From NCBI GenBank assembly GCA_040182905.1, contig JARQWU010000057.1, positions 1 through 46,142 on the forward strand: DNA of 46,142 nucleotides, given 5' to 3'. This DNA comes from Barthelona sp. PAP020 (taxonomy: Eukaryota). Both the position numbers and the translations under genes were made by a program. A model generated the notes under the pieces. The model was not told the DNA's origin, searched no databases, and saw only the letters and a list, made by a program, of their open reading frames with translations. Each line of letters begins with the position of its first letter. Positions within the stretch are counted from its first letter, which is position 1. Below, piece after piece: positions 1 to 46,142 of the stretch.

Positions 1-3000
1 GCTTCTACATCAAAAGTGTAAATCTCCAAATCATTATCATAGGCGAAAGAAACGTTTGGTTCAAGCAACAATGAACTATCTGCAATAATTTCAGAAATTT
101 TGTAAACTGCATCACAAGTGATGATTGTACCATAATAGAATTCTTCACAAGTTCCATCTTTTGGTACACCAGTAGATAATGAAGTAACACATTGACTGTC
201 ATCCATACACCATCCACAGAAAGAACGTGCAACACAATCTTCTTGAGTGTCAAATGCACTACAATCTGCACTACAATCCATTCCTTCATAACCATAATCA
301 CAGTCACATTCATCAGGATAGCATTCGCCGTGTTGGATTATCAAAGTACCTTTACCGACAAAACTACCTCCCAAACGATCATAATATCCACTATTACTGA
401 GGATTTTGCTATCCAAAGATGGAATGAATAAAATACCATCTTTATTCAGTTCAAACTTGTCATTCAACAGATTTGTTTCAACTTTCAAAGTACCATTAAG
501 TAAAACAATATTAGAAACATTTGCATACGTTGTCAGTTCAACATCTTTGAGTTGAACAATTCTGACAGTTGGTTCACACCAATCTTCCCATAATTCATTA
601 TTGGTGAAATTAGCTTGAGTGAAATTACTTGGTACAACAGGACAGTTTGTAGAATTGATGGTGAGAGGTACATTCTGATTATTAATTTGTGTTGTGTCAT
701 AAATTATCAATTGACCTCCAGTTATTAAGAATTCACCAGCAATCAAATTAATGTAATCCATGATATAATGGGTACCTCCAGTGATGTAAATATTACCATT
801 AGAATTGAATATAACATCAGAAGTGAAAGTTGTTTGACCAGAAGCCAAATTCAAGCTGCCACTATACCCAACAGTCCAAGTACCATTCAAACTCAAATCT
901 TCAACAGGATTCAATTCAAGTTCTCCAGCATTGACAGCGAAAGAACCATTACCACTGATGCCTGTAGAAATTGGGAAACTAATTGCAGAAATGACAATAG
1001 AACCATAATTAACTATTTCAGCATATTCAAGCAACTCTGCATTTGATGGAAGCGTGTAAATACCACAATCACTACAGCCTATGGTCAATTCACCATTATA
1101 ATGAATGATAAATTTACCATTTCTCTTTATTGTGACATTTGCATCTTCATACCATCCCATGAGTGTTTTGAGATGGAAATCAGCATTGTCAACGACAATA
1201 CCACCCTTTGGCATAAACACACCACTGTATGCAGTTCCTAAAATATTGAATTCACCAGTATTATCACTAGAAGTAACAGTAAGATCTTCTACATTATTTC
1301 CAAATTCAACTACATCAATAACACCATTATTCAAAACTTCAAACGTTGTATTTGAACAATCAATGGTCTTGAAATTGGCTTTTCCTTCAACATGGAAATT
1401 AACATCAACAGCCTCACAAGAAATACCAGATTCAATATTCAAATAGTTACCAGCTCTAATGTATACTTCACCACCATTGAATGTACAATCCATAACCCCA
1501 GTTAAAGATACGTTGGCTTCCATGGTAAGTCCTTGTTCAAAAATAACTTCTGTACTGTCAACTTCAAGAGGAGCTTTCAAAATTGCATTACGAAGCTTCA
1601 GCAAACCACCACCACTTCTTCTGAATGAAGATTCTAAAATAACACGAGAATTCTCGATGAAATCAAATTCACAACTTGCATCAGAAGATGACAGTGAACC
1701 GAAAGCTGGAATCCAGAAGATACCAGAAGATTGACCAGCGATAACACCTGATCTCCAATCAACAGAACAATTTAAATACAAAGTGAACTTACCATCAATC
1801 AATTTGGTATTTGTTGTATCAATCAGTGTAGAACCATTAACTGTAATGTTACCTGCACCAATGAGTGTTGCACTTTCCCAAGTAAATTCATTCTTTACAT
1901 AGGCATAACCATCACCAGAAATAGTACCAGCATTTAAAGTCAAATCTTCAATTTCAATAGAACCGTTCAAGTAGAAAGTAATATCAGCATTGTCCAAAAC
2001 TAAAGCAGTTAAATAAGAAGGTTTGCTACCAAGAACTTCCAAATGCCCAGAAACAAGTTCAATTGGACGAACTGAATTTTGAATCTTTGCACCATCCTTC
2101 AATGACAGTTTACCACCATTGAAAGTAAATTCTCTGGTCATTGTTACTGAAGATTGCTCCAATCTTAAGGTACCAATCAATTCGACTTCACCATAAACAG
2201 TAAATGTCGCATCAGTTCCATAAATTGTGTGAATACCAGTACCGAAACATATTTGTCTTTGCATAAGGTAATCACCAGATGACCAAGATTTTCTTTCAAG
2301 AACCAACAAACCAGCAATGTGATTGACAACACCATCGTAGTTAAACAAACCTTGAATAACAATAGATTCATCAGATTTTTGATAAAAAGTACCATAGTTA
2401 TGAATACCAGCGTTAGATTCACTGTCAATGTCATGAACTTGTGCAGAACAATCAAGACCTGTCAACTCCATTTCAGCACCGACATTTACCACCAATTTGG
2501 ATTGATTGTAGAAATTTAAGACACCGGCAGACCATGTGATCAAAGTGTTTGATTGCAATTCAACCAAGTCATACAATTTCTTTTCTTCAGAACCAACGAT
2601 CTTCAATGTATCAGACACAATCAATTTACCAGGTCCAATCAATGAACCAGCATACCAATTGAAATCAGAGAAATGCCCTGTTCCTTTACCAGCAATTGTA
2701 CCTTGCTGCATCGTAATTGGTTCGTTAACCAATAAATCTCCGTTGTTTATCAAATATGATTCTTCATTGATAATACGTAAGGATTCAATTTCAACATAAG
2801 CTCCTTCATTGATGGTGAAATATGGATTATAGATATCAACATCAGCAAGAATATAATGGAAACTAGAATAAACTGAAGGAGGTTTGGCTATTGTAACATT
2901 ACCTTCAGTTAAAGTAAGGGAACCAGATGAAGATCCAGTAGAGAAAGGATATTCAATGTGCAAATGTCCCTTTTGAATGATGATACCACCACTGCAATCA

Positions 3001-12000: not shown

Positions 12001-15000
12001 GCTTTGACAATACCAGTACCAGTGATAACACCAGAATTGAAATTGACATCACCTCTAACTTCTAAGGTATTAACATCCATTTTAACATAAGAAAGAGAAC
12101 CAGTGATATTAACATCTTTCATTACAACAACACTACCGTCCATTTCAACAGTACCATTATATACAACAAGACTGTTCAATGTGAAACAATTTCTTGAAGG
12201 ATCTAATGGTGCAGTAACCTTGGCTGTACCACCATCAACAACTAAATCAACTCCAAATCTTTCACTTTCATCACATGAACCAGAAAGAATGTTAACAATA
12301 GCTCCTGATTTGACAATGACTTCAGACCTGATGGGATATATATCCTGAGTACCAGTATCAATTTCAATACCTTGACCTTCAGAAATAACTTCACCTTCAG
12401 TTGTTAATTTTTCCAAAGCAAATTCCATTCTTCCAAATGTTCCAGCTTTGAGATATGAATCTGAATAACCACCACCAATGAAAGTGACAGTACCATTATC
12501 AATATTAATTCTACCACTATTGGCCAATGACCATTCAATGATTGCTCTACTCACAGAATAATCAGGTTCATCACCTGGTGAAATGTTATCACAGGGAGCA
12601 ATAGGTTTTCTGATGGTACCATAATAAGTACCCATAAAATTGTAATATGAAATACAATTCTTCATGACAATAGGATCGGTTGGTGTGATATATGATTGAG
12701 CATCCACAGCAGATTGAACAGAAGTTGCGAAAGATACTAAATTACTCAGACCTTCATAAACAAGAGCGTGTGTTATTTTGGTCTTGGTCGCTTGAAGAAC
12801 AAACTTATAATCACCATTTGATAATTCATCATCAAAATCGATTGAATAAATTTGATATCCTCTGAATAAGATTGTCATAACACCTTCTTCGGTAAAGTCA
12901 ACAACCAAAGCACCATAATCAATTGAAGCAAAACTAATCACAAATTGAACATATTCACAATGAGAATAAATTGTTTCATTTGTTCCAACTATACATCCGG
13001 TAACATAACCTTTTCTTGTTAATTTGACTGCATAATTCATGACAACAATTGAAGGAGTTCCTGGATCATAATACATCTCTAATTCTAAAATATTCTCAAA
13101 ACCAAATCTGATGATAGTTCCTGTTGCATCACTGTCTGGTCTAAAACCAACAACAAATGCAAGAGCATCAGTTTTGAATAATCTGAAACCAACAGCAGTC
13201 ATTTGTGTATCAGCAAAATAAGCGTAGCCATTACTATATACTGGATCAGTCAGAGCATCTTCATAAACTCCGTAGAATTGATGAACATAGCAGAAGTTAG
13301 TATCTCCTGCAACTCTTTCATAATAACTGTTTTTAGTAATATTACCATAATTTTCGAGTGTGGCTTTTCCAGTACTACCTCTTAATAACATAGAGTTACC
13401 AAAAGTAATTGATGCATCTTGATTTGACAATGATGCAGAACTTTCACCCCAAACAACAGCATCCCAAATAGAAAGATTCATTTTATTCAATAATTTTCTG
13501 CCAGACAAAAGTTTGTAGAATGTGGTTTCAATGGAACTTTCTCCATATAAAACAGTAGTTCCTAAACCACTCATTGTACCTTCAATCCAAACAAAATTGC
13601 CAAAAGTACTGAAAGAACCTGTACCAGCTAATTCAGAGTTACCATCTTGAACAAAATTACCATATAAGTCAACCTTACCAGTAATCGTAACTTTACCTTC
13701 ATCAGATAATGTGAAATTATTCTTTATTTCCATATCTCCAATGATATTGACTTCTCCATTTTTAGAACTTAAACCAGAAATAACAATAGGTGCACTACTT
13801 GATTGTTTGAATGTTAATAAACCTCCTTCAACAATAAAAGTAGTATTCAAGTCATTGAATTGAACATCTGATGAAACTTGTGCAGATCCCTCCTTAATTG
13901 TGATAAGACCATTGACATGAGTGAAATTGTTGTTAATTGAAACTTGAGATGACCCTGAATTAACAATGAGATCACCTTCATCACTTACAAATGATAACTC
14001 AGAATAAAGAGTGTGAACTTCATCTCCTAATTCAACACTAGAATGATCTTGAAGAGTAATAATACCATAAAGATCAGAACCACCATCAAATACAACACTA
14101 CTGTTAACCATACTAATGTTACTCGTAGTGTGTGCATAGAACACAGATTCAAACGTGGTATTTGAAACATCCGAAAGAATCATAACACCATAGTTGTGGA
14201 ATTCAGAAGGTACATCACCAATATCCTCAATAGCAACATCTTCGGTATTTTCAAGAGTAAATGTGGCATCAAGACTATTGACTATTCTCGAAAATTCATC
14301 AAGAATTAATCTACCACCATTCCAAGTTGCTTCATGTTCAATACTAAGAGAAGATTGAATCATATATTTTGAATCACCCGACATTTCAACATCATAGGCA
14401 TACACAATACCAATATTGGTAACATTACCACCAGACCAATTGTAGACTTCAGTAACATTTAAACCATCAGCAACAACAACTTCTCCACAACTTAATGAGA
14501 AATTTTTAAAAGTGAAGAAAGAACAATGGAAATCGATTGTTCCGCCATTGACAGCTACTAAAGCAATATCAACATCACTTGGAGGACATCTAACAGATAA
14601 GTATCCACCTAACACTTGAACTACACCATCACCAGTCATTGAAGTACCAGTTAACCATTCAAAATTAGAAGTGTTAAATGATAGAGTGGAACCTTCTTTA
14701 GCATTCATCAAACCTTTGTTGAAACCATAAACTTGAAGAATCAATTCACCAGCTTCTGTTGACAAATTACCAAAGTTATAGAATTTAGAATCCCAAACAG
14801 CAACACTGTCCCCTTCTTTCTTTAATGTACCATAATTATAAAGATTGATACCAAACACATCTGCTTCATTTTCCAAGAGAACTCTGAGAACAGCATCCTC
14901 CAAAATAATGAAGCTTCCTTGTGAAAACCAACCAGCCATGGAAGAATATCCCTTCACAAGAACACCAGTGTTAATTAAATTGATGACAAATTCATGAACA

Positions 15001-18000
15001 ATTACATAAGAACCATTCCAATTTAAGGTTTGAGCGTTAAGGGTACCATATGAAGTCATAGCCAAACTGTTATCAGATGTGCTATCACCAACAACATTAA
15101 CATACGTGGCATTCAATGTACCATCTGATGAAAATTCACCCTTTTGAAGTCTAAGTTCTTCAGTAATCTCAGTTGGATAGCAACCTTGGATTAAAGTACC
15201 ACCATTCAACCAAATAGAAGGAAGAGAGTACAATTCAATATTTGTATTACCACCTGTAATTTCAATAGCTGCAGTTCCAGCAATAGTAGATTCTCTAAAA
15301 TAGAAATCACCAGCTGCAACTTCAAACCATCCATCTTCTGCACCAGTTGTATCAGCAGTGGAGCGGAAAACACCAATAGCACCTTCGAAAATAATTTTAG
15401 CCTTTCTTGGAATAATTACCAAAGAAGTTTTGAAATCTAAGGCAGAAACACCACCAAATCTAAGTGTAGCAGCGGTAGTAGCATGTCCTTCAATTCTTGT
15501 ATTCAGTTCATTATTTGTACCATTAGATGCCAAGGAACCTTCATTGAGGTAAAGAATACCTCCATTTTGAACAAAACCTCCAGTAGCTGAGAGAGTAATG
15601 ACAGAAGAACCAAATTTGTACACATCATCGTATGCTTCAATCAAAAGATTTCCCAACCAATCAACTGAACCAGCAAGATTCAAACGATCATGAGTTTCTA
15701 ATACCCAAGCAGCTCGATCATTGTATGACATGGAAGCATTATTTTGAGGAATTAAATCAACTGGACAATATGAAATCCATGTGAAGGGATCTGTAGCTCT
15801 AATGTTTCCAGAAGTCCATTGAGCTGAAGATACAGTATTTTGAGTAATTAAAGTACCAGAGAGAAGTGTTTTGTTACGAGGTGAATCAATGAATAAACTT
15901 GTAGAAACTGTGATGGAAGACAGTAATGCACCAGAAATGGTCAATGTGTCCAACTCAAAACGGTCAACGGTCAAATCAAAATCACCTCTAAGAGTACCAG
16001 ATTCTTTAGCTGATCCATCGCTTTCAAAACTGGGCAAACCATACAACAAACCGATGTTACATTCAACATCAATTGCAACGTCTGCAGTTTTGATGAACAA
16101 ATTGGAAATATTACAACTTGAAGATTTTACTAACAAAGTACCATCAACAGCTTGTACCGTAGCATTTCCGGTTATTGACTGAATGTCAAAAATACCATAA
16201 ACAGTTGTGTAACCATCAAATTCATAATATCCATCACCTGCAAGAATACTATCATCATAAATAGTTGCAGTTGAAGTGTTAACGAAAGAAATTGTGCTAC
16301 CATCAGTAACATTCATTATACCATAACATTCAACAACATCATGGAAGTAAACAATACCATTATCACTGTAAATGAAACCAGACTCTTTAATAGTAATTGG
16401 AGAATAAACATTAAGAGTGCTATCTTCAATTGAACGAATTGTACCATTTTCCTTGACAATGAAAGAGGAATAAGTTGAATAAGTTGTTATATTTGTCATA
16501 GAACTATCAGCAATGCGAAGTTCATCTTCAATCAACATTGATGCATCATCAAAAAGAGTAATATTTGCTCCTTCAGCAAATAAGATTCCTTGAGAAACAA
16601 TAGAACCTTTTCCAACGACTTCAATGTTTTCTTGAAGATGTCCTTCCTTTGTTTCATGAACAATCAAACGAATTCCATCAAGAGTTGCATTTTTAACAAC
16701 GGCACCTTCCAAAATCAAGTCACCAATACCTTCTAAATCGACTTTATAAATGACAGATGATGCACCAAGTGTTAAAGCACCATTTACAACAATTTGTCCT
16801 TCATAAACAGCCAAATTATCAAAAGATAAGTCCCAATAATCCAAATCAAACACACCACCATACATTTTAAAGGTAGTACCAAACGATTCTAAATTGGCAC
16901 CACTACGGAATCTATAATAAGAATCACCTGTACCATTGGACAAGAAACGATCGGACATGATCATATAAGTACCATTCAACACATGAGTTTCACCTTCAAT
17001 TTTAATTTCTGAATTAATAAGAGATGGTTCGCTTGATTGAGAACTAAAACTGAAAATACCATTACCAAGCAATTTGGAATCAGAAATCAGATTACACAAG
17101 TCAAATTGGATTTTACCATCAAGAGAAGCATTGAAAATACCAGCAGATGCAATAGGTGATAAAGTGGAAGAACCAATAATTAGAGTACCTTTAGTAACAT
17201 TGAAGAATGAATTTGTACCACCAATAATATTCCAAGCTAACAAAACTTCCATTTCCGAATCTAAAACAAGATTTCCATTTTGATATAAGATACCTTGATT
17301 GGTAGTATTAAATTCACACAAATCAGTACCACCTTTTTTGAATTCGATTGAACCGTAATTTGTGAAATAAGAGTTATCAGCAGTTAATGCGATGCTTCCA
17401 AAAACAAAATAACCATAATTGATAAATTGAATGTCAGATTTCAACATAACAGGAACACTGGTATCAGTAGAATTCATGAGAGAATTACCTGAGATGTTAC
17501 ACAGACCAACACCATCAAAGACAGCACCAGAACCGACAATAAGTTCACCAGTTAATTGTAAAGTACCATCATTGACAATAAGACCATATGTCGTTAAATT
17601 CTTGAGTTCAACATGTGAAGAAGTAACTGTCATTTGACTGGTTGAATCAATCAAACTGACAGCTGCTTGTCTGGTTAAGACATTTTTGAAAACAATATTA
17701 GAATTGTCAGAGAAGGAGAAAACCATATGTTCAATTGCATCACTTGAATAGGATGTGAATGTTTGAATATTCAAAATAGCATTTTCGATGAAAACAACAG
17801 TTGAAGTAATATCAAAAATACCATTGGAATCAAAAACATGATTTCCAGAAACTTCAATGTAACCTTCTCCAGTAATAAGACCTGTGGGATTATTGGTGAA
17901 CACACCATCTTCTCCACAAATTAATGAACCATCGGCAGTAATATTGACAGTTTTATCATTTTCAAATTGTCCAACAAAAGTGAACTCACTTTCGATGACA

Positions 18001-24000: not shown

Positions 24001-27000
24001 TAATAGGTGCTTGTTTTGTCAGACGTTATTTGACCATCAGGTAAGACAATAATTCTTCCTTCACCATCAAATCTAGGTGAATCAAAAGTATTGTTCACAT
24101 ATATTTCACCTTTAAATGTAATTTTGTTAATTTGATAAGATTGATCATTTCTCCAAGAAGCAGCAAGTATCATAACAACAGGTTCTTGTATTCCCCAATC
24201 AGGAGTGTCATAATAACTGCTTGTTGCTTGTGTCCAATTCATTTCCTTATTAAACACAAATACACCTCCTTCAAATTGAGGATAGAAACGAGGTGATAAT
24301 CTTTCAAGGTCTGTAATATCATTGTTAAAAATGGTTGTACCATTCTTGGAATGGAATTTTGGATGAGTAGATCCAACAGCAGTGCTGATCATTGATACAT
24401 TTTCCCCAAAAATGTTTTCATTGTAAAGATAAATGTAAATATTTGACAATCTCCAAGTCAACTCAACAAAGACAGAATTATCAACAATAGCAGACATAAC
24501 ACCAGAATAAACATAAATTGATGTTGTTGTGTTGCATTGAGTAAAATTAACACCATTGTGATTCTTGAAACCACCGTTAGACATCAAATGAAGTCTCAAT
24601 TCCTTTGTTGTGGAATTGAAATGAGAATCACCACCTAACAATTGATACCAATAAATGTCCAAATAAGAATAACTTCCACTGACATGATTAAACATCCACG
24701 TACCAGTAGAATACAAATCATTCTTATCACCACCATCACCACCATAGAAATACAGAATTCTATAAAATCCAGAAGTTTCAAAATGTCCCTCATTCAAAAT
24801 GTAACAATAAAGATACAAATAAGTATCGGTCTTTGCAACAGTCATATTGGCACCTTCTTTAATGTGAATGATACCATTAGAAGATGAACTACCAAAACTA
24901 GATGAGCTAGTAAAGAGGAAAAGAGAGCCAGATTCCAAAGTGATCTTTGCATCATCTCTCAAATGTAAATTCATGCCACCAGTAACATTGACATTCTTTT
25001 CAATAATAATCTCAATAGAATAAAGATAAACATTGTATGCGTTGGTCCAAATTGATGGTTCATGCAATAATAACTGTCCATTTCCACGAATATAACCTTG
25101 TTTCAAATTAAATGGACCATTAACTTCAATTACAACGTTTTCACCAACCCACAATTGAGCATTAGCACTATCTAAAGTGAAGTAAGGCAATTTCACAATT
25201 CTATTTGTCTGAGGATATGATACAGCAGGTGATAAGAAATGTAAGTTCAAACCAGAACTTGCTTCAATTATTAATGGGAACACATTAGTGTCTGAATCCT
25301 CATCAAAATACAAGTGATGTTCAGCGGTGGAAGAATAATCTGGCCAGTTTCTCAATTGAGTACGTATCAAATAACTATGACCATAAACTGGTTTAATAAT
25401 AGCATTAAATATACAATCAATAAATTGAACAACAACATCAGTGCTTTCCACATAAATTAAATGACCTGGTCCATCAAATAAAACATTTCTAACTTGATGA
25501 ATAGCACCTCCAGAAGAACGGAATCTCAACAGACCGGTGTCTCTTATGATAACACGCGTTTCATTAAAGACAGAATTTGCATATAATATCAAAGAATTTT
25601 TCATAATTCTGATACCTCTACCATCAAATTCCTCAGAAACATCATGGAAATCCCAATATGTAATCAAAGAATTCTTATCAAGTAAAACTTCATTACGATT
25701 TTCAAATAAGGGCTCCATATATGAGGAACAACTTCCTGAACCACAACGAAGAGTAAAATATGTGTTATGAATCAAATTGTAATTGATAAATCTAATTGAA
25801 TGCTTAAAACTGGCATGAGCATCAAATATTGCTTGACTTGTTGCCTGCACAGACCCATAATTGTTCAAAGTAATGTTACCATACATTCCCAAAATTGGAG
25901 TACTAGCATAGAAATCAATCATTCCTGTGTTGTCGAATACGGCATTTGTACCATAAAAATATACACTTCCGTAGATATAAATTGTACCAATGTTCTCTGT
26001 AAATTCAGACAAATAGAAAACATAATCATAATTCAATATGTTTTCTCCAGAGAATATCAAATTAACGCCAGGATCAACATAAAAACTAATTTTTTCATAA
26101 GTTTGAGAGGACATAACAGTATGTTGCTCTACAAAAGTAAAATTAACAGTTGATGCTTCAAGAACATTTCCTTCCAGAGAATTGATCTTGTTCACCAAAT
26201 AGACTTGTTTCATATCCTTTTCAACAGCTGTTGAATAATAATTATAATAATATCCATCGCTACTATACGCTTTGACAAATGCACCTCTGGCAGTGGCATT
26301 GAAGAATTGAGGATCATTGGTAATCAATTTACCACTGCTCAAATGAATATTAAAACGTTTGGTTTTTTCAATATTCCACGTCATACCTTCTTCAAAAATG
26401 AACTCTACTTCTGGAGTTAAGGCCCAATTATCACGATAACTATCACCCAAAACCAAACCAACACCATAACCAAGATCAACAGGCTTATCCATATAGACAT
26501 CAAGAATGAAATCCTTTGTAAAACGTGCACCATATTTCAAAGCAATTTTAACAATCACCTCAATATTATTACTGTATGGTTCAATGGGACGGCCATCCGT
26601 AATTGATGCATTATAAGCATCTCTAATTTCCATACGTCCTTCAAAAATAGCTGGAACAGCAATAAATGAATGATAAGCTGAACTTCTATCCCAATATGCA
26701 TACGTGCCATATTGAGTGTATTGTTCATTAGCATTGGTGTATCTTCTAATGACAGTTCCTGACTTTTTCAAATGATACAATGATTCATTATAAGAAAAAT
26801 ATCTTCCTCCACAATTGTGATATTGAGAAACAAGAATTTGTTCACCCTTCAATTCGTGAACACCTTCAACAACAATTTCTGAACGTAACAAATACCATCT
26901 TTGAGGATGACTATTGGAAAATTGATTCAATTTTCCAAGATATCCTTGAATAACCAATCTAACTCGACCCAAATAAATTTCCGAATATGTAGAATGAGAA

Positions 27001-30000
27001 TATCCAGCATCAAGTAAATACAATTCAGGCATTGTTTCAACAGTACAGAAATTGGTCAATGTATCATCCCAATTAACTTTACCACCTTGAATAGCCAATT
27101 CTTTCAAATATAATTTGTTTAAAAAGTTTAATTTACCATCTCCATACAGGAACAAATATCTTACTGTCAATTCAAAGTCATACAAATACCAACGACCACC
27201 ATCTCTCAAATGTACTAAATGTTCATCTAAACCATTAACAGTTAATCTGTTCCACAAAGTGACAGGACCGTTATCAGTGGCATTAACATATTCAACACCA
27301 AAATGAACTTTTCCATAAATCAAAAATGTTTCTGAATGATCAACAAAGTTTAATTCACCATAAAAGTGAACGGTTGAAGCTGCAACAACATACAGATAAT
27401 TGACATACAAACGAGAATCTCCTGAAAAATGCAATAACGTATTTTCAATTTGTAAATGACCTTTACTGACATTCATATAACAATTCATTTGCCAATTTAC
27501 TTCATCAGTAGCTGTATTTTGAAGAATTACACGACCATTAGTGGTGATGTTACTTTCTTTTGTAAAATTAAATCTTTGACCAACAAAATACAAAATATAA
27601 GTGTCACTATAACTTGGAAACATAGAAACAATAGTACCATTAATAAAAGCACCACCTTCATCTGTATCCCACTGTTTTGATCCCAAATATGTAACATTTA
27701 ATGTAACACCATTCAACAAAGAAATAGATGATGTACCTTGAGAATAAAAAGAAGCAGTGGTGCTCCATTCACAATCTTGATGGAATTCAAAATGCACGGG
27801 TTCAGATGTGGCAGTATTTGATCTAACATCAAGTCCTTGAACAGAACATGAAGTGGCATTCATGATCACTTTACCAGGACCATAAATAATACCATCATTG
27901 TAATCAAACTCGTCAGTAATTGTCAAAACAGCGTCGTTATACAAATATATGTAAGAAGATGCAGAGTTCATCATCAACTTGCGAATGGTGGTATTTTCGT
28001 AAATATAAAGTTTACCACTGCTGATAAGAACTTCAGGCCAAACAAAATTACCAAAATCTTGAATTGAGAAAGTGGAAGTGGTGGTAGTCAATGACAATTT
28101 TGACTCATCCCAAACAAAATTAACACCTTCATCAAAGACAATTGAACCAGAATCACCAGTTGAAAAATCACCAAAAACGTTAACATCACCTTTGAATAAA
28201 ACTCTACCATATGATACAGTAAATGTACAAGTAGAACTGATTGTTAAATCAACATCTTCAAACACATTTTCTCCCAATAAGGATAAAACAATAGCATTGG
28301 GACCATTCAAATTCATTACACCTTGAATAATTGATCCACCTTTAAATTTCACAGTTTTTGAATTTAAAGAAAAATCAACAACACCATAAGAATAAACAGG
28401 AACATCGAAACCATGATTTGAAGTTCCATTTACAATCATATAATCATAGTTAATAAATTCATTTAATGTAGAACCAGAAACAATGGTAACAGCAGTATCT
28501 GAATTGGCTTCATCAATATACGTACCATAATTAATAAAACTAGTATCATACAAATAGATAATAGATCTATAATTTCTGAAAATATCATTATTAATAAATT
28601 GCTTGTAATAAATATACACATAATCAGCTAAATATGTATAAGCATTCAAAGACACATTACCAGTTCCTAAGAAATATATTTTTTGAAGATGTGTATTGTA
28701 GTCGAATGAAATAGCTGCATCATTAGTTACAGTCACATAACCACTGCCATAACCACTTGCTCCATGAGCAGTAAAGGTACCATTAAATGTATAACTGTAA
28801 GAATGCATATCTAATTGAGCACTTTCACTTAATCTCACATTTCCTAAATTGGCAATGTTGGGTTGAGTATAAGAAGGTTTATAAGGAGCAGTCACATCAG
28901 GATGATGATAATATCCAATAAACATCTTTGAACCTTGACTTAAATACACATGAGAATTGACATTATTGTTATCAAAGGTTCCATAAACATAGATGTGTGC
29001 ATATCTCTTTGCTAATATGTAATAAAGATTTGAGTATCCCAAGAAATAGAAAGTGTCATAACTGGGATCATGAGTCGCGGATGTATCACCTTCATAATCG
29101 AAAATGACCTGTGAATAAGTATGAATGGATGATGTGAAGGTTCCTTCAAATACAGCAAGTCTGGTAAACATAATTGCTGAATTATCCAGATACAACTTAC
29201 CTTCTTCTTTCAAATGGAATTGACCTTGCACTCTTACTGTGTTACTGGTATATGTAGCAATATTCATTCTTCCATAAACTTCAAAAACAAAATTATCTGC
29301 TGGGAAACTGGAAGTAACCATCATGTACGTGGAAGAATCTGCGTAAATATGATTAAAAACACCTGTGTGACCAACCATAACCAAAGAATCTACACCTTGG
29401 AATCTTGATTTTGAATTAGCAGTACCATTCATTACAAAGTTTGAATCACTCAAATAAACACGTGCTTCAGCCGAAAATGTTGTCATAGTTGCACCATAAT
29501 TGACAACAAAAGCAGCTTCTTCAATAATATTCAAGAAATACAAATCACAAGTTACCAAAATGTTAATATCACCAGGTCCATGAATAGTTGCAACAGCAGA
29601 AGTGGAAGAAGCTCCCACAACATAGAAATAATTAACAGTAACAGCATCAGGTACAGTCAAATGTGCCAAATTTTTAATTGTCAATCTGTTAAAATGCATA
29701 TTGGCAGATTTAGTAACAAAATGTTGGTGTGTACAAATTCTTAATTCTTCCACACCATTGACATTCATTGAAAAACCATCATAAATATTCAACCTAGCAG
29801 GATCAACAGTATAAATCCAATTTTCACTGTTTGTGACATAAATACGACCGTAAAATTCAACATCTACATTTGCATATATCTGGTTGGCTGCCCAAATAGT
29901 ATTTTCATCATAGAATTGAATAACACTATCAGATTGGAAGGAAACATAATTTGCACTGGTAGACCTGGCATAAAGCGTACAATTATAAAAGCTAAATTCA

Positions 30001-33000
30001 CCATTGTACAATCTTACTTGATAAGTCTTAAAATCAATGGTAGTATTAATGAAATATGAACCAAAAGATCTGAAATAGAAATTATTTGCAGCATTAATGG
30101 TGGAAAATTCCAACTGCCATTTTGCGTACAAACTGTTCGATCTTAAGGTCAATAAAGCATCATCACCAACAATATAAAATGGATTGGCAGCAGTACCAAG
30201 AACTGCAGATGTACTTGAAACATAGAATTCAGATGAAGGATGCAAAACAATCGAAGGTTCATTTTCAGCTTTCACATTACAAGTAGCAACAGTAATTTTT
30301 TCATGGATATGAATTGAAGTACCATCAATTGTTGAAGCTCCATTCAAAGTTGCCAAAGGTGTGGAGATTAAACCCAAACCTGAAACAGTACCAGTTGTTA
30401 AAGTAAAAGTAGGAGTGAACAAACTTTCGCTAATATACAATTCAGCATTGGTACCAGAAATAATCAATGAATCAACAGTCAAATTCATTGGAATGGAAAC
30501 ATAAGCATTCTCCTGAATTATCATATCAACAGAAAGAATTTCAAGACATGACTCAAAAGAAACCTTGACATTGTCTTCAATAACTAAAGTGTTCGAAATA
30601 TTGAAATTTTTGTTATCGTTGTCCAATTTAAAACTCACGTCATCTCTCATGTACAAATTGGCAGTGGTAAAATCAAAATTACCACCAATTGTAACTTCGG
30701 CATCATCAATCAAATAGAGAGATGATGAGGCTCCAACGAAATCTGTTGAAGAATCAGTAATATAACGACCATTCCTGAAATATATTTGAGTATTGGTACT
30801 AATTGTGTAAGAAGAAGTACTTTTAAGATAGAAATAATAACCTTGATATTTGATTATCATGTCACTTACAGCTGTTGAGGAATCTAAAGCACAAATGACA
30901 GGTAACAAAACATTAACAGTAACACCACTTACACCATCTGTACCATCGAAATCCATACGTCCATTATTGGTAATTGAACCCAAATTGGATGAAACAGCAT
31001 CAGTATAAATTTGATAGGTTCCAGATGCTTCGGGAATAAAACCAAAATACCCATAAATTATCATTTCACAACCAATGAGATTTAAATTACCTGTAGTCCA
31101 ACGAACAGTACCAATAATCTCCAAAATACCATTGATAAACTTAAATCCGTCACCAGTACTTTTTAAATTTAAGGTTGCTGTATTCTTTAAACTAATTTTA
31201 GCTGCAGCATCAGATATTTCAATAGAACCTGCGATACAAAGGAGATTTGTATCAATCTCTAACACACAACGGTCAGAAACAGAAAGAACTGATCTGTCTC
31301 TCATTTCAATTTGTTGACAAATTACATGTAAATGTTCAATGATCAAAGAAGAATCATCATTCAATCTGAATTTGGGAATAGTTACAACATCCAAATCATT
31401 TGATTGAACAATAACAGATGAATAATCGTTCATTGTAATAGTTTGTGCATTGATTGAATATCCAGGTAAGAAAATAACTTGACTATAATCTTCAAAAACA
31501 CTTGAAGCAGAATCAATCGCGCCGGACAATTTCAAAATACTTTCTTCTTTCAAATACACATAACCAGCACTAGTAGCCGTTAAATTGAAATTGCTATTCC
31601 AGTTGTGAGTTCCTTTCTTCAAATATAAATATGCAGGAGCTTCCAAATAAAATACATCATTCAAATTAGTGTCTGATTTAAATGAAATTTCACCTGCTGT
31701 AAAACTAATTTCAGAGCCAACACTTGCAGTTAGCACGACAGCAAAAGATACATGCCCACTATAAGAAGGATTAGTCAACATTTTACCATTTATATATACA
31801 GTAGATGTCAATTCAACAGAATCTGCTGAAATGAATGTTGGAGAGTTACTACCAGTGGCTATGTAGAATTCAGCACCAGATTGAATGTACAAGAAAGATC
31901 TATCAAAAGAAATATCTCCATAAGCCCATACAAATGTTTCAGAAATAGTAAGTGTAGTGTTAATAAATGATACAGCACCTGACACTTTTGCATTCTTTGC
32001 GTTCAAAGATAATGAAGTAAAACTACCACCATAAATAAAAATGTCATCAGCTTCAACAATACCATGACCTTTCCATGTACCACCATTGTGTACCAAAGTA
32101 GATGCAAACATTTTACCACAACCAATATGAACTGAACCATCATTAAAAGTAAATGCTGAAAGATCATCAAAATTGGCAGTATCACGCACAATTAAAGTAG
32201 CACCATCCACAATGAAAGAACCTTCTCCTTGAATTGTTCCAGCAACTGTCATATAATGATCTTTAGCAGACAATGCCGAAGAAGCTTCCAAATTAATTGA
32301 AGCAAGAGAATCAACAAGGAAATAATTCAAACAATAAATATCAACATTTGTAAATTCTTTCACAAATACAGCAGAATTTGGATAAATATGAACCTTATTC
32401 TCTCTAAATTCAGTCAATTCACCATCAAAATATGTTGAAGACAACTCATAATTAATGTAATTCCAATACATTGTGATCATAAATAGACCTCTTCTTTTGA
32501 CAATACCATAATTTTCAAAATTTGAGGCTAATTCTGAATCATCAACAGTCATAACAGAATCAACAACGGGTTCCAAATAAAAAGTAGCACCAATATTATT
32601 AATAATACTTGCTTCTTGTAAACCACGAATTTCTCCAGATTTCCAAAAAGCAAAACCTTCATTAACGACTTTGAATCTGTCCAAAATCTTTAAACCAGTA
32701 ATCATTGTGATGGAAGGAGAACTTAAAGTACCAGTACCAACTAAAGTTCCTGCTTTCCAAAGGAAAGAAGATGAAACATGGATTTCACCTTTTCCTTCAA
32801 TAACACCATTATCAAAATCAACAGATTTAACATCGAAATCCAAACAATTATACTGAATGGTACCACCACTAATGAACCACTGGGATGAAGCAGGAGGTGG
32901 TGTTCTAAAGTCAATAACACCACCAGTAACTGTGAATGGAGATCCTAAGTTTACAAATAGAACATCTTCACGGAACAAAATGTAACCTCCTTTTACAGAA

Positions 33001-36000
33001 AATTCAGCAACATCATCCCAATTTGCAGAGTAAACGTAAACATTACCTCCAGTTACTTCAAAACTACCTTCAACATCAATATCACCCTCATAAATTCTGG
33101 TCAAACCATCAGCAACTTGGAATTTACCAAAAGATTCAGAATAAATGGTAGAATATGATAAGAATGTGGAAAGTAATGAAATTGTACCAGTTCTAACATG
33201 AATATCACCCTTTAAATGATCAACATCAACACCAATACTTGTTACAGTAGAACGAATAATATTTTGAATCAATATTATACCCTCATTGGAAATTGAAGAC
33301 ATCAAACCATCTCCTTGTAATAATTGATACGCAACAACATGACCAGTTTCAAAAGTAGCTGTTTTAGAATTGTTCAAAACAACCCCATGAGAGAAATAAA
33401 TATCACCTGCTGACCACAAGAAACTACCATAATTGATTAAATAACGTTGGGAAACGTATTTATCTTGATTGGAATCAACAACAACACCTCCTAAAAGATG
33501 GACAGAACCAGATCCAGTAAATCCACCACCGTTCCATAACAACTGATCTTGGAAAAACACTTCACCATCACCATTAACATAACCTTGATCAGTAAGTGTA
33601 AGTTGATCTTTGAATATTGAAGTGTTGTGGAATGCATGGTTACCTCCTGAAATAACAGCAGGTCCTGCAACAGTAAAATCAGAAGACCAAGATGTTTCGC
33701 CATCCACAAAAGTTATACCCAATGTGAAATAAAGAGGTTTTCTTGATTTGACTTGTCCTCCTTGAACTGTTAAAGATGGCATAACAGCTTCTTTGGTTCC
33801 TTCAAAAGAAAGAACGGAAGTAGAATCTCCATCAACAATAACATTATCAGTTGCAAAGAATGATCCATCGTAAACAGACACGTCTGAACCATTTACCAAA
33901 AATTTAGAATTGGATGAAAGGATAATAGAAGAACCACTGCGTAAATAAGTGAAACCACCAGTTAACATAACATCACCATCACCTTTGATACGAGATCCAT
34001 CATCAAGCGTAAATCCTAAACCACCAGAGAAATCTAAATATGCATCTGATGCAACGGTAAAATTACCTTTGCACCAACCTCCACCAGCCAAGGAAAGAGT
34101 ACCAGAATTAATATATGTATCACCACTTGAATCAAAATACCATTCAATGTTCAAGGTTCTATCATAATCCTTATAAACGTTATTTGAATTACCGAATTGA
34201 GGACGATCACCTTCACTGTTGTAATACCACAATGAACCACCTGGCATAAACCTGAATGTGGATGTGGATGAAACAATAATAGTTGCTCCATCCCAACCAT
34301 AAATATCACCATCGGTATATTCAGCGATTGATTCTACCATTATTCTTCTGCCAGACAAATATTTATCATTGGAACCAAATATTAGCAATCCTCCATAAAC
34401 AGAAAGCAAGTTTCCACCAGTGATACGTCCACCAGACCATTTTAAGGGACTGTAACTTTTAGTAGCACCATCACCACCAAAAATACCGTTTGAAATGTTA
34501 AACTCACCATAAATAAGTGATCTAGAATCAAGATAAGCTTCACCACCAGACATTATGAAATTGTTATAAATTTCAACTTCCGAATCAGAAAGCAATTCAC
34601 CACCAGAAATATCAACATTTTCAGAATACATAGGATAACCATGGAAGAAAATTGTACCTCCAGTAATCTCCAACATACTACCAAGTGATATTAATGTTAA
34701 ACCAGATTCAAATGCAGAATAACCACCAGTAATATAAGTCTTACCAGAGACATTGTAAATACAAGTGAAACTAATTTCACAACCATCAGATGTTTGAATA
34801 ACACCAGGAGCATCAATAACAGCTGAAGCTCCAAACAATTGATTTTCACCAGCAAGTTCAAGAACTGTATCCTCAGTAATATTGAAAATACCTTTAGCAT
34901 CAATAGAACCAGATAGAATAAGACGACCTTGTTGAATAATTAAATCACCTCCATGTTCCAAACGAACATCAATGACAGCAGTTGAAGTCCCATACTTTTC
35001 AATTGTTCCAAGATTTTCAAAAACAGCTTCAGGCAAAGCGCCTTGAATGAATTCACCACCTGGTAACATTTTAAAGAATGAGGAACCAAGATTTAAAAAT
35101 CTCGATCCTTCTTTGGCAATAATGTCACCACTATACCACAAACAAGTATCTTTGTTGAAGAACTCATTGATTTCGAAAGTCTTGCTTGCACCACTAGTTC
35201 CTTCAAAAATAAAGAAATCTTTTTCGGTGGACATTCTACCAGTACCTTTAATGGAACCACCTCTCCAAATTAAGCTATCAGTAACAATAGCTTGATTGTT
35301 GTCTTCAATAGTACCTCCATTCATATTGAACTCTTTGATGGTTGCCAAACGATTGAATCTAAATATACCATCATAAATATTCAACTCATCAATTTCAATG
35401 ACGGCTTGAATATCAGATTCACCACCTTTGATATTAACCAAAGGAATGTAAGTATCCAATTTAACCAAAGTAAGGCTACCTGCAACAATTGTAAAATTAT
35501 TGGCCAAAGAAATCAATTGAGTATTTTCTAGCAAACGTAATTCAGTTGTATCTACAACTAACACACCAGTAATATCAACAGTACCAAATTCTATCTCAAC
35601 ATAACCACCCAAAAATTGAACAAGGGCAGGTGATCTGAGAACAGAACCAAATCCAAAGTTCATACCTCTTTCATCAATAATGAACTCGGTATTGAGTGAA
35701 CACGTGATTGCACCATAAATTTCACCATTTCCGGTCAAAACTAAAGAACCCTCTTCTAAATCAACACTAGCATAGAATTGAGTATATAAAGATGAATAAA
35801 AAGCACCATTGTTGGTTTTCACAACAGATGATCTCACAGATAATCTGGACGGAACCAAAGGGTTTTCATCAACAAAACCTGAAGGGAAAATATTATCGAT
35901 TGAAATTGGAGCAGTTGGCTCTGCAACAAAATAACCAACGTTGGAATAGAAAAGATAACCTCTATGGAAATAAATAGGTGCCAAGAAAGTAAGGTGACGA

Positions 36001-39000
36001 GAATGAACTGCCTTGATATCCGAAGTATCAATATAAGTATCACCAAAGACTTGGAAAGTTCCACTGCCGGTGACATTACCTCCATTGAAATTAAATCTTT
36101 CAGCAATCTTAATTGGACCAATACCATCAATCAAACCCGCATTCAATGTATAGTAATCAAATTCTGCATATGAAACTGATGATGGTAATGTTATAATTCC
36201 ATGCTGAGTTAAAGAAGTGACAAACATCGTGGAATGAATGGTAACTATTGCACCAGTTGAAACCGTTGAAACATCACCTTCAGTGGCAGACAAGAAATCA
36301 ATTTGACAATTTGATAAACTCATGCTATCAAAAGTCAAATCGTTGAAATCAATGATACCACCAGAAATTACAAGGATATCAATATCAAAAGTGCCCAACA
36401 AGGAAATATTACCACCATGAATAGTTAAACTACGGATATAAAAAGAAAATCCAAATGGAATGGTAACATTAACTTCATCACCATCATAAATAATAATGTC
36501 TACACCTAAATTGGGAATATAAGCACCAGATTCTAATTCAAAACTACCATGACCAACAGTAACAGTATCATTAAATAAAGTCGAAGAACCAGAATAAGCA
36601 ATGAAGGAATCATCCTTCGATTGACTATTGATGTGTACAGGAGAATAAGAAGTGATTGAAGACAAATACAAAAATTCAACAGTTCCATGCATTGTTAAAG
36701 CAGAACCAGTTTCAATCGTGATTGAACCATAAAGTCCATTTTGCAGACCATATAATTCTGTTGAACTCTTGAAGATATCAATAACATTACCTTCAACATA
36801 TAATTCCCCATAATTTACCAAATAAAAGCGTAAAATCAATGTTTGACTCTCTTGAAGAATCTTACCATAATTGATCAACTGATTCTGTGGTTCAACTTGA
36901 TTGGTCAACACAAATGTTTCAGCATTCTTTTCAATACTGCTTTCAAAAATAATATTGGAATCTGCTTGATTTGTGATAATGAATCCATCATAAACAAGAA
37001 CTTCACCATCTTTATAGCTAATATCACCGAAATTAGAAATAGTTTTCTTCAAAACTTTTTCCAACTTTGTATCAATTACAAGAATTGTGTTCACAATAAA
37101 CAAATTGTTTCCTTGAATAGTACCACAATCCCAATAGAATCCATAAACTGGTAAGTCATAATCAGAAAAAATATCACCACCCTTAAAGGACCAAGAAGTT
37201 AAATGAACGTTGGATGTTTCAAAAGTAAGTGTGCCATTATACATAGTGAATAAAGGAGAAGAAACACTTCCTTTGAATGTCACAGAACCATGAACAATAG
37301 TGATATTGCTAGACACAACATCACCGGTAAAAACATGAACACCACTGTAGATAACAATTTCATCAATATTTGCATCAATGACCTTCAAATTACCACCTGT
37401 AGTTTCTAAATAATCAGCAGTAATTAAATCAGTTTCAATAGTTCCTCCAGACATCCATATATCTGTGGTATTAAACTCTTCAACAAGAACATTTCCTTCA
37501 GACATTGTAACATTATCACAACTAACAGAACCAGGATAAATATTAAGTCCTGACAATTCATTATCAAAGACCAAATAGTCAACCTCCAAATCACCAGATA
37601 ATTCCAAAAAACCTCCAGAAAAATCTACATATCCTGTAAATATTGTACCTGTGACATTTAAAATACCACCATTAAGGGTAAGTAAAGGTACTGTCAAATT
37701 AGCATCAATATTAAGAATTGCACCTTCCATTTGGAATTCATTACCAACACTTACGTTTTTATAAATAAAATGTTCATGATTATATGAACTTCCAGTGGCA
37801 GTGTTATCATCAATATACAACTTATCACCAATGTCAACGAGTGTATATGAAATAAACTCACCAGCTAAAATATTCATAACGTCAACGTCAAAATCAACAC
37901 CTGCTTCCAAAATAAGATGAGCATCCTCATCAACTTTAATACCAGAAACATTCAAATCTCTTGATAGATCAACATTAACGCTTCCAATAAAGTCAAAATA
38001 TGAACCTGTTTCAACATTTAATATAGAATCATCTTCAATGAAGACAGATGTAGTACCATCAAAAACAAGATGAGCTGTTGTATTTAAATCAATGATTGCA
38101 TCATCAGAGATTACATGTTGAGTACCGCTTATACCTGAAAATACCAAATTTGTACCTTCAGTAACCTCAATATGAGAATCTGGGTACAAAACGGAACCAA
38201 ATCCTAATTCTAATGTGCCATCTTCTATCAAAATCTCACTATACAACAATAACTTCCATTTAATATATAAATCAGCAGATAATTCCTTCTTATTCATCTT
38301 AGATCCTTCCTTAAATTCTAACATACAGTCATTTGATGTTGTAGAAAAGGTAAAGGATTGAGGAGATGAATAATTAAAGAAACTTCCATCTTCAAAAATT
38401 AAACGATTTTCCCCACCAGTGTTACAAACAAAGAAACCTTTATTGTTTAAAACTAAACTGGAGGTTGATGTCATATAAATCTTTGAATAACCAGCAATGG
38501 TACGATTTAATGAATAATAAGGCAAATGCAAAGTTTCATTCACAAATAATTCCAAAAAACCTGTATTTCCCTGAAGTAAACCATAACCAAAAGTAAAATT
38601 ACGCACATCTGATGAACCATCACCAGTTACAGTACCTCCAATCATGTTTAAGTGATCTACATAATTCTTTTCAGTTCCTGAAAAATGAACATATCCAACA
38701 AGTGATGTTTCAATTTCTGTCACATTAGCCTTATATAAATACACATGATTCTTTGAGACAAACATTTGATCAACCATTAAATCTTCGTAGAAATATGCAT
38801 ATGTTTGAACAGTTGTTGTTAATGAAGCAGAAACCAATTTTAAAATATGCAAAGGAATGATGTTATTGGCAGTAATTACACCTCTATAATGTTGAATTTC
38901 GTTAACAACACCAGACCTTCTGATATTCAGTTTACCGTTATTAATCAAACGAATTATATTAAAATCTTGTTCAGTATCCAATTCAAGGGTACCTCCAGAT

Positions 39001-41397: not shown

Positions 41398-41499
41398 TTT
41401 TACCAATTAAATTTTAATATAAATTTTTTCAAGTAATTGTCTTCTTTCAATCTTTGGATTTCTTCAGAAATCTCAAAAAATTTTTTTGTATATTTGAAC

Positions 41500-41883
41500 A
41501 TGGAAGTTGTTTCAACCCCTAATGCCCCCCCTGCTGTTGGTTCCTATTCACAGGCTATTAAAGCTAATGGAATGGTTTTCACTTCAGGACAAATTGGACT
41601 AAAACCTGATGGACATTTTGTTAGTGACGATGTCAAAGATCAAACTCTTCAAGTTATGACCAACTTACAAGCTGTTTTGGAAGAAGCTGGAACCTCTTTT
41701 GAATTTGTTACAAGATGTAATGTTTTTGTTGCAAATATGGATGATTTTGGTGTTGTTAATGAAATTTACAAGTCATTCTTTGAACCTTATGGACGTTACC
41801 CTGCTCGTGCTTGTGTTCAAGCTGTAATTCCCAAGGGTGGAAAAGTGGAAATTTTGTGTGATGCCATTATTCCTTCTCAATAA
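41500..41883 (+). CDS. ridA: RidA / YjgF-YER057c-UK114 family reactive imine/enamine deaminase, 127 aa
   Basis: MEVVSTPNAPPAVGSYSQAIKANGMVFTSGQIG...VVNEIYKSFF...YPARACVQA...KVEI. The YSQA, SGQI, catalytic Arg (PAR) and C-terminal Glu motifs are present. The ATG at 41500 is preferred over the upstream TTG in the ORF track. Confidence 0.95.
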   Translation: MEVVSTPNAPPAVGSYSQAIKANGMVFTSGQIGLKPDGHFVSDDVKDQTLQVMTNLQAVLEEAGTSFEFVTRCNVFVANMDDFGVVNEIYKSFFEPYGRYPARACVQAVIPKGGKVEILCDAIIPSQ

Positions 41884-46028: not shown

Positions 46029-46142
46029 TTTATGTCATGAGAATAATGAGGGGGAGAAGATTTTATAATTGTTTTTTTGAATTTCGAAATTGTGTAAAAA
46101 GATTTTTTGTATATTTATTATTTTTTTATTTTTTTATTTTTT

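Follow-up and report, generated by a model that had tools for sequence, protein, structure and literature searches.

What is encoded by a minus-strand reading frame that stays open for more than 40.9 kb in the genome of a free-living metamonad? The question was raised by a stretch of 46,142 nucleotides from Barthelona sp. PAP020 (GenBank assembly GCA_040182905.1, contig JARQWU010000057.1, positions 1 to 46,142), the whole of which is called the window here. The strain is now named Parabarthelona vacuolata, and its cells measure 7.1 x 4.7 micrometres (PMC13087550; this and the other cited papers are represented by excerpts, and statements about them extend to those excerpts). An earlier reading of the window, made from the sequence only, had proposed that the frame encodes a giant secreted or surface-displayed protein. 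A secreted or surface-targeted beta-solenoid was supported by the domain architecture, by the model of one repeat unit and by structural matches.

Reading frame and domain anatomy of the giant protein

Translation of the reverse complement of 3..40961 yielded 13,653 codons and 0 stops, and the proposed uninterrupted open reading frame (ORF) of more than 40.9 kb and at least 13,653 amino acids (aa) was borne out; in-frame stops in this interval, named earlier as evidence to the contrary, did not occur. The stop-free run extends from 40994 past the left edge, and the ATG of the giant gene lies at 40961 on the minus strand. About 1,000 stops were expected in this frame from base composition (log10 P about -451), and the remaining five frames contained 751–1,787 stops apiece. 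The GC content at third codon positions (GC3) was 0.18–0.26 in all 14 blocks of 1,000 codons, and it was 0.24 in the neighbouring gene at 41973–46028. The frame was kept without an intron, and no alternative genetic code was needed. It was listed only once open ends were allowed (as "3open"), which fits the presumption that the ORF caller had skipped it for want of a stop. The 20 largest families of direct repeats were 24–46 nt long with 64–85% identity, and no long near-identical DNA repeat was reported; since these repeats are short and imperfect, nothing visible in them would explain a false join driven by repeats. A bacterial origin of the DNA was also considered and was rejected in view of the neighbouring gene, which is identical over aa 1–955 to a EukProt entry, of the EGF and PSI domains, and of the bias in glycosylation sequons.

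The computed mass of the part inside the window is 1.495 MDa, in agreement with the estimate of about 1.5 MDa or more. The sequence-only reading had placed the product in the size class of the largest known proteins; it is large, but it stays well below PKZILLA-1 and Dumpy. The features of the giant are as follows, P0002 being a paralogous transcript product that is described further below.

3..40961, minus strand: giant ORF of at least 13,653 aa that runs off the left edge (translation, ORF listing, stop statistics, codon composition)
40899..40961, minus strand: likely signal peptide, aa 1–21 (hydrophobicity)
40662..40898, minus strand: N-terminal tip rich in Cys, Tyr and Trp, aa 22–100, with 7 Cys at 36–96; candidate ligand-binding end
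23487..40661, minus strand: distal rod, aa 101–5825, of degenerate ~280-aa units; predicted beta-helix, one unit modelled (2010–2298)
23289..23468, minus strand: EGF-like pair, aa 5832–5891, 12 Cys, likely hinge (Cys positions and Pfam)
23157..23279, minus strand: second cap, aa 5895–5935, with the motif W-x-W-x-P-x-D-x-[VAI]-x-I, common to bacterial arrays
13329..23156, minus strand: first part of the proximal rod, aa 5936–9211 (unit tiling)
12552..13328, minus strand: insert of ~260 aa, aa 9212–9470, breaking one unit (gap in unit tiling)
342..12551, minus strand: second part of the proximal rod, aa 9471–13540 (tiling; colinear with P0002 from aa 10287)
273..323, minus strand: EGF-like domain, aa 13547–13563 (EGF_Teneurin, E 0.027; Cys pattern kept in P0002)
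129..266, minus strand: PSI-like domain, aa 13566–13611 (PF01437 match; conserved in P0002)
3..128, minus strand: start of a membrane-proximal domain, aa 13612–13653, cut by the edge (the P0002 alignment reaches aa 13642)

The order of domains described earlier (cap, solenoid, EGF pair, cap, solenoid with insert, EGF, PSI) holds, and the signal peptide placed at its start is likely. Residues 3–21 form the most hydrophobic 19-mer of the giant (Kyte-Doolittle 2.25; runner-up 1.84), and the hydrophobicity scan detected no second signal-like segment. The tip at aa 22–100 had no family match. The units of the distal rod are regular at aa 1142–2866 and much diverged at aa 2870–5825. The EGF pair was matched by EGF_TEN over aa 5828–5893 (E 1.6e-6; 28 bits against a cut-off of 65) and the PSI domain by PF01437 over aa 13566–13594 (E 1.8e-4; 22.2 bits against 23.1), all EGF and PSI matches falling under the curated Pfam cut-offs. 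The cap motif occurred in a single copy, at aa 5909, and none was found ahead of the first array. By eye, the insert resembles a LamG/concanavalin-type sandwich; as LamG it had no match in Pfam, PDB, PHROGs or the fetched bacterial loci. N-glycosylation sequons were enriched at aa 5900–13530 (152 versus 105.8 +/- 8.7 in shuffles), and no RxK/RR or tetrabasic cleavage site was found in the giant. No named family in Pfam or NCBIfam spanned the protein (Pfam over the whole ORF in five pieces, E 0.1), in line with the earlier statement that the architecture was not recognised as one.

The outer distal rod at aa 2870–5825 (about 23,500–32,350) is both diverged and richer in Tyr, and it is a candidate glycan-binding surface. 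Tyr reached 87 and 71 per 1,000 aa at aa 4001–6000, compared with 27–47 in most other blocks.

The repeat unit, its fold and its bacterial relatives

A unit of ~280 residues tiled the giant in 52 stretches, 21 of them strong, when an iterated self-profile was used, which is circular by construction. Held-out profiles gave the same picture: with units of the C half, 11 stretches of the N half scored more than 10 bits, against 2 when the sequence was reversed, and with units of the N half 15 stretches of the C half did so, against 1. Self-BLASTP at E 1e-3 returned no off-diagonal high-scoring segment pair, so profiles are needed to detect the repeats. The similarity autocorrelation peaked at lags 6–8 and 19–21, as expected of three-stranded coils. 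The conserved columns among 20 aligned units were glycines, and no acidic or basic residue was conserved.

The AlphaFold2 model of unit 2010–2298, based on the 20 aligned units, was all beta (pLDDT 82, pTM 0.84), with residues 35–61 poorly placed. Foldseek against PDB gave no match at E 0.001, and its weak rows were mostly beta-solenoids. In a structural search with this model (VIA, 48,161 chains; the tool warns that repeats score high), the whole unit aligned to parallel beta-helices, led by Vag8 (Z 18.5, rmsd 3.0 over 261 residues) and followed by pertactin (Z 17.4), VacA (17.0), EtpA (16.4), HMW1 (16.4) and Tapirin (16.2); tailspikes and lyases reached Z 15.0 or less. The unit is predicted to be a parallel beta-helix that is nearest to autotransporter and two-partner adhesins. 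FwdC, a PDB sequence match to the unit profile at E 0.006, was set aside as a glycine-rich solenoid likeness. At 19–25 residues per coil and a beta-helix rise of 0.48 nm per coil, the rod would measure 250–328 nm in two segments. Scaling from FHA, a 230-kDa, 40-nm rod of about 80 coils (PMC3756990), gave about 260 nm; both figures presuppose that the modelled unit is representative of the other 98% of the chain.

A motif scan of genome contigs detected at least 129 bacterial loci (L001–L129), with 7 overlapping duplicate loci dropped. Among the matches listed, 54 of the 63 ORFs of at least 500 aa carried one or more units of at least 20 bits and 43 carried two or more, and the unit matches extended far past the 14-codon search motif. 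The giant matched L040 with a BLASTP E of 5e-28 (21.6% identity over 1,306 columns), and single units reached as much as 92 bits with the profile. When a profile was built from 102 units of 42 bacterial loci, it picked out 48 stretches in the giant, of which 25 scored at least 20 bits, and 7 units of at least 20 bits in P0002; at that level, neither reversed sequence gave any. This test is partly circular, since the bacterial units were first picked with the giant's own motif and profile. The co-occurrence of the cap motif is evidence independent of that choice. Among the matches listed, 25 of the 54 bacterial ORFs that bear units contain the motif, and in 22 of them it lies no more than 150 aa ahead of a unit; it was absent from the nine listed ORFs without units, occurred in 0.05 ORFs per shuffled set, and turned up in 1 of 200 shuffles of the giant.

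Thirteen of the 18 high-scoring carriers scanned had Pfam matches, among them two-partner secretion (TPS)/FHA, type IX secretion system (T9SS) sorting, RHS, Ig, cadherin, FN3, DUF11 and FecR domains, and no best-scoring Pfam stretch overlapped the recorded unit positions. Carriers that bear secretion or surface domains, together with units that lack a Pfam model, argue that the ~280-aa unit serves secreted bacterial proteins as a stalk module that has no name yet. In the Atlas, unnamed clusters were ranked first (score 0.94, low recognition). In a FastTree phylogeny over 178 columns, built from 42 bacterial units, 17 of the giant and 5 of the paralog, the eukaryotic units did not fall together, and neither a donor nor a direction of transfer could be read from it; the positional pair G12212/P1935 alone was supported (0.97). 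Among scans that detect close relatives only, metagenome pattern matches were confirmed in 0 of 17 and 0 of 579 cases and viral ones in 0 of 121, and plasmid tblastn returned none.

The combination of cap and unit array is a widespread bacterial module that occurs in many phyla without a Pfam or NCBIfam model, and its fusions include TPS, T9SS, RHS, FecR, Ig and PAP2 domains. Example carriers are L040:3-12350, L055:3756-12359, L064:6015-16040, L057:3452-9646 and L078:6048-12584. On a Rhodocyclaceae contig (L079–L081; about 7,900–11,700 on the minus strand in L079), the array ran across three adjacent ORFs of 271–486 aa in different frames, and either sequencing frameshifts or a broken gene would account for the split.

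The paralog, the projected membrane anchor and possible functions

A search with the last 1,500 aa of the giant retrieved one protein, P0002 (4,893 aa; isoform P0003, 4,972 aa), a transcript product of Barthelona sp. PAP020. The two aligned in one high-scoring segment pair (10287–13642 against 39–3339; 24.8% identity, 700 bits) that was colinear over ~3,350 aa, with 18–34% identity in every 250-column block and the EGF and PSI cysteines retained. Because the transcript of the neighbouring gene matched at 100%, an identity of 24.8% indicated that P0002 was a paralog. It begins mid-unit without a signal-like segment and is thus probably 5'-truncated.

Past the PSI domain, P0002 contains ~510 extracellular residues, then one strong hydrophobic segment (3854–3872), then RRK. 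By eye, the ~510-residue membrane-proximal domain is like the C-terminal region of FRAS1/FREM, a likeness that could not be confirmed; the domain had no useful match in Pfam, PDB sequences or the Atlas, and its single-sequence model had a pLDDT of 30. The tail after the hydrophobic helix comprises 1,020–1,100 residues (1,097 aa in P0003) and had no Pfam or PDB-sequence match. It is helical by composition and contains acidic clusters and YxxPhi and dileucine-type motifs, counted without a chance control. Weak internal helical repeats were seen in residues 3875–4972 of P0002/P0003, with spacings near 90, 154, 180 and 315 (best E 0.007), beside acidic clusters and two alternative C-termini. If the giant is built like P0002, it would have about 15,200–15,275 residues.

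On balance, we favour the reading that the giant is a single-pass surface glycoprotein of ~15,200 residues with a two-segment beta-helical rod of 250–330 nm, an adhesin for bacterial prey or substrate whose tail couples to the cytoskeleton or to uptake. The signal peptide would lead the chain into the endoplasmic reticulum (ER), and the units would add one coil after another to build two stiff rods, with the EGF pair as hinge and with N-glycosylation of the proximal rod. The EGF, PSI and 510-residue domains may form the base, which one helix would anchor in the membrane. The rods could hold binding sites up to 0.3 micrometre off the membrane, the candidate sites being the Cys-rich tip, the 260-aa insert and the part of the distal rod that is strongly diverged and rich in aromatic residues, and the ~1,050-residue helical tail could couple binding to the cytoskeleton or endocytosis. 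Barthelonids attach via the posterior flagellum, have no vane and were proposed to feed unlike typical excavates (PMC13087550), which provides a reason for such a device and no proof of it.

The sequence-only reading had proposed a giant adhesin, surface fibre or capture filament as an undescribed system. The giant surface beta-solenoid stands; a free fibre has become less likely given P0002, and the repeat is not new but common to bacterial proteins. A single-pass membrane protein with a large cytoplasmic tail is more likely than a free fibre, and we infer that its role is adhesion or prey capture.

Several observations weigh against this reading. The membrane helix and tail were seen only in a paralog at 25% identity, and the giant's own end lies outside the window. 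Modelling covered just 289 of 13,653 residues, and the match to the unit was weak at aa 2870–5825 and 5936–7100. Adhesins and enzymes lay only ~3 apart in Z, and the fold by itself shows no function. Sequons were not enriched in the distal rod (62 versus 72.7 +/- 7.5 in shuffles). The giant's last 1,500 aa did not match a product of its own among 7,994 candidates shorter than 5,500 aa, and its last 5,000 aa had 0 homologs among 453 candidates of 5,500–17,500 aa. As transcripts of the neighbour and the paralog were present in the same collection and the giant's product was not, this collection does not show that the giant is expressed. The neighbouring gene diverged abruptly from its transcript-derived homolog P0001 past aa 995 (about 44,958), to ~45% identity with a shorter C-terminus. 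In addition, the excerpted ultrastructure paper mentions no surface coat, hair or filament (PMC13087550).

A bolder form of the favoured reading, which we regard as doubtful, is that barthelonids swapped a lost feeding vane for a family of single-chain, membrane-anchored "fishing rods" of ~0.3 micrometre. A bacterial stalk module would have been amplified ~50-fold in one exon and connected, through EGF-PSI and a single helix, with a cytoplasmic machine of 1,000 residues for capturing bacteria and hauling them in. If this were true, these proteins would rank with the longest single-pass membrane proteins and beta-helices so far described, in a lineage whose genomes have 10–13 Mb.

Here, four other explanations were considered. 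A long-reach sensor would have the same rod and anchor, and ligand or load would signal through the ~1,050-residue tail with adhesion being secondary. The large, compositionally helical tail of the paralog, with the acidic clusters and motifs noted above, suits this idea. PSI and EGF domains also occur in signalling receptors such as plexins and integrins. However, Pfam and PDB sequences revealed no catalytic or known signalling domain in that tail, and ~14,000 extracellular residues would be costly for sensing alone; we think a sensor unlikely. The same low weight is given to a structural coat, spacer or shed fibre without a specific ligand, be it on the surface, in the lining of the cytopharynx, or in the wall of a food vacuole or cyst. 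Glycosylation of the proximal half, as suggested by its sequons, speaks for such a material, Dumpy provides a precedent for a giant structural fibre, and the lack of a transcript where the neighbour's was found fits a stage-specific product. On the other side, binding sites are suggested by the distinct Cys-rich tip and by the inserted domain, a search for RxK/RR or tetrabasic cleavage sites found none, and the paralog keeps its large tail.

Less probable still is that the assembly fused several paralogous genes into a chimera, or that the gene is silent. At least one paralog exists, the second half of the giant opens with its own cap motif, and the junction in the neighbouring gene near 44,960 is unexplained. 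Against this stand the uniform GC3, the lack of near-identical repeats for a false join and of a second signal-like segment, and the 3,350 aa that are colinear with an independent transcript, P0002; a dead 41-kb AT-rich frame would also soon gain stops. The least probable explanation, an array of beta-helical polysaccharide-degrading domains that digest capsules or biofilm, draws on the fold shared with lyases and tailspikes (Z up to 15.0) and on a host that eats bacteria, but it is weakened by the lack of any Pfam or NCBIfam enzyme family, by best structural matches that are non-enzymes, and by 20 units in which glycines alone are conserved and no acidic or basic residue is.

The giant matters in several respects. 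It exemplifies a class of eukaryotic giant genes that is missed by ordinary ORF calling on cut contigs. It would alone make up 0.3–0.4% of the genome at the 10.2 and 13.2 Mb of the published barthelonid assemblies (PMC11316075), and at least one paralog is to be added. It connects a beta-helix module that is widespread in bacteria but has no name with a eukaryotic architecture of EGF, PSI and membrane helix. It is a candidate for prey capture or attachment in vane-less barthelonids, a matter left open in the excerpted 2026 ultrastructure paper (PMC13087550). The folding and the ER/Golgi traffic of a rigid 0.3-micrometre rod in a 7-micrometre cell would also pose a problem of cell biology.

Neighbouring genes and comparison with known systems

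Two genes were found on the plus strand beside the giant. A Rid/RidA-family enamine deaminase gene at 41497–41883 (+) was identified by TIGR00004 (140 bits, above the cut-off); it is divergent from the giant, and the 535-bp intergenic region between them has 25% GC. The 1,351-aa gene at 41973–46028 (+) had one homolog, P0001 (EukProt, Barthelona sp. PAP020), among 7,984 candidates scored; the two are identical over aa 1–955 and differ at 956 and 961. Where this gene diverges from P0001, paralogs may have undergone gene conversion, or either the transcript or the genome assembly may be chimeric. The product of the gene had no Pfam or NCBIfam match, and it may resemble the flagellar central-pair protein SPAG17/PF6. 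A T-rich low-complexity run at 46,060–46,142 lies just past the stop of this gene, as at a contig end.

Among known systems, Bordetella FHA/TpsA and autotransporter passengers (Vag8, pertactin, EtpA and HMW1) share with the giant a rigid parallel beta-helix rod of ~19-residue coils, as far as its one modelled unit goes. They differ in that the giant has ~6.5 times the mass of FHA and carries a eukaryotic signal-like peptide, sequons, EGF and PSI. Models of the TPS domain (PF05860, TIGR01901) had no match in aa 1–3000 of the giant at E 0.1 and did match the bacterial carriers L029 and L064, and Pfam detected no autotransporter beta-barrel translocator in P0002. The unnamed bacterial arrays of cap and units (e.g., L040, L055, L039 and L057) have the same ~280-aa unit and the same cap motif. 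They consist of units of ~200–280 aa, up to 11 in the listed loci, with bacterial export, whereas the giant has room for ~48 units in two arrays on a eukaryotic base.

With regard to size, PKZILLA-1 has 45,212 aa (bioRxiv 10.1101/2024.01.29.577497), Dumpy is a 2.5-MDa EGF-DPY chain encoded by 78 exons (PMC10895422), and MUC16 is a mucin (PMC10867145). For the PKZILLAs, poly-A RNA gave negligible coverage farther than ~10 kb from the 3' end (bioRxiv 10.1101/2024.01.29.577497). Dumpy and MUC16 resemble the giant in their megadalton size, their extracellular or membrane-tethered position and their combination of EGF modules with higher-order repeats, but neither forms a beta-helix rod encoded by a single unbroken frame.

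Other eukaryotic surface proteins, namely fibrocystin/PKHD1, the fungal Hyr/Iff/Awp proteins, the teneurins and FRAS1/FREM, combine beta-helix or bacterial-derived modules with EGF-type linkers. The G8 and TIG/IPT features of fibrocystin/PKHD1-TMEM2 had no Pfam match in the five pieces of the whole ORF at E 0.1. The Hyr/Iff/Awp domain PF11765 had no direct Pfam match in the giant; in the Atlas, a Hyr cluster scored 0.90 with 150 of 256 features and low recognition. Of the teneurin shell, the two EGFs at 28 bits (cut-off 65) were the only trace, and NHL, YD and RHS had no match in the giant. CSPG and Calx-beta repeats of FRAS1/FREM had no Pfam match in the giant or P0002.

The closest precedent in kind is found in the Pmps of trichomonads, in which bacterial-type adhesin repeats are no longer joined to a prokaryotic export domain and have acquired a single membrane helix with a cytoplasmic tail, and whose expression raised adhesion; the tested members are of 67–68 kDa with GGA[ILV]/FxxN repeats (PMC6701047). 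Like them, the giant is a metamonad surface protein with a bacterial-type adhesin repeat, the membrane helix and tail being seen in P0002. Unlike them, it has at least 1,495 kDa, another unit of ~280 aa, EGF and PSI domains and a signal-like N-terminus, and its host is free-living. The Pmp hallmark GGA[ILV] occurred once in the giant (1.2 +/- 1.0 in 200 shuffles), which is no more than chance, and FxxN tetrapeptides occurred 71 times (58.4 +/- 6.8 in shuffles). By the family features tested, the giant appears to fall outside the Pmp, TpsA, G8/fibrocystin, Hyr/Iff and teneurin families. No description of giant barthelonid surface proteins or of the giant's family was found in the literature; the excerpted main text of PMC11316075 does not mention the largest genes, gene length or the surface, and its supplements could list the giant. 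The scale and architecture of the giant were thus not found in print, but the principle is already known from the trichomonad Pmps, in which one membrane helix replaces the prokaryotic export domain.

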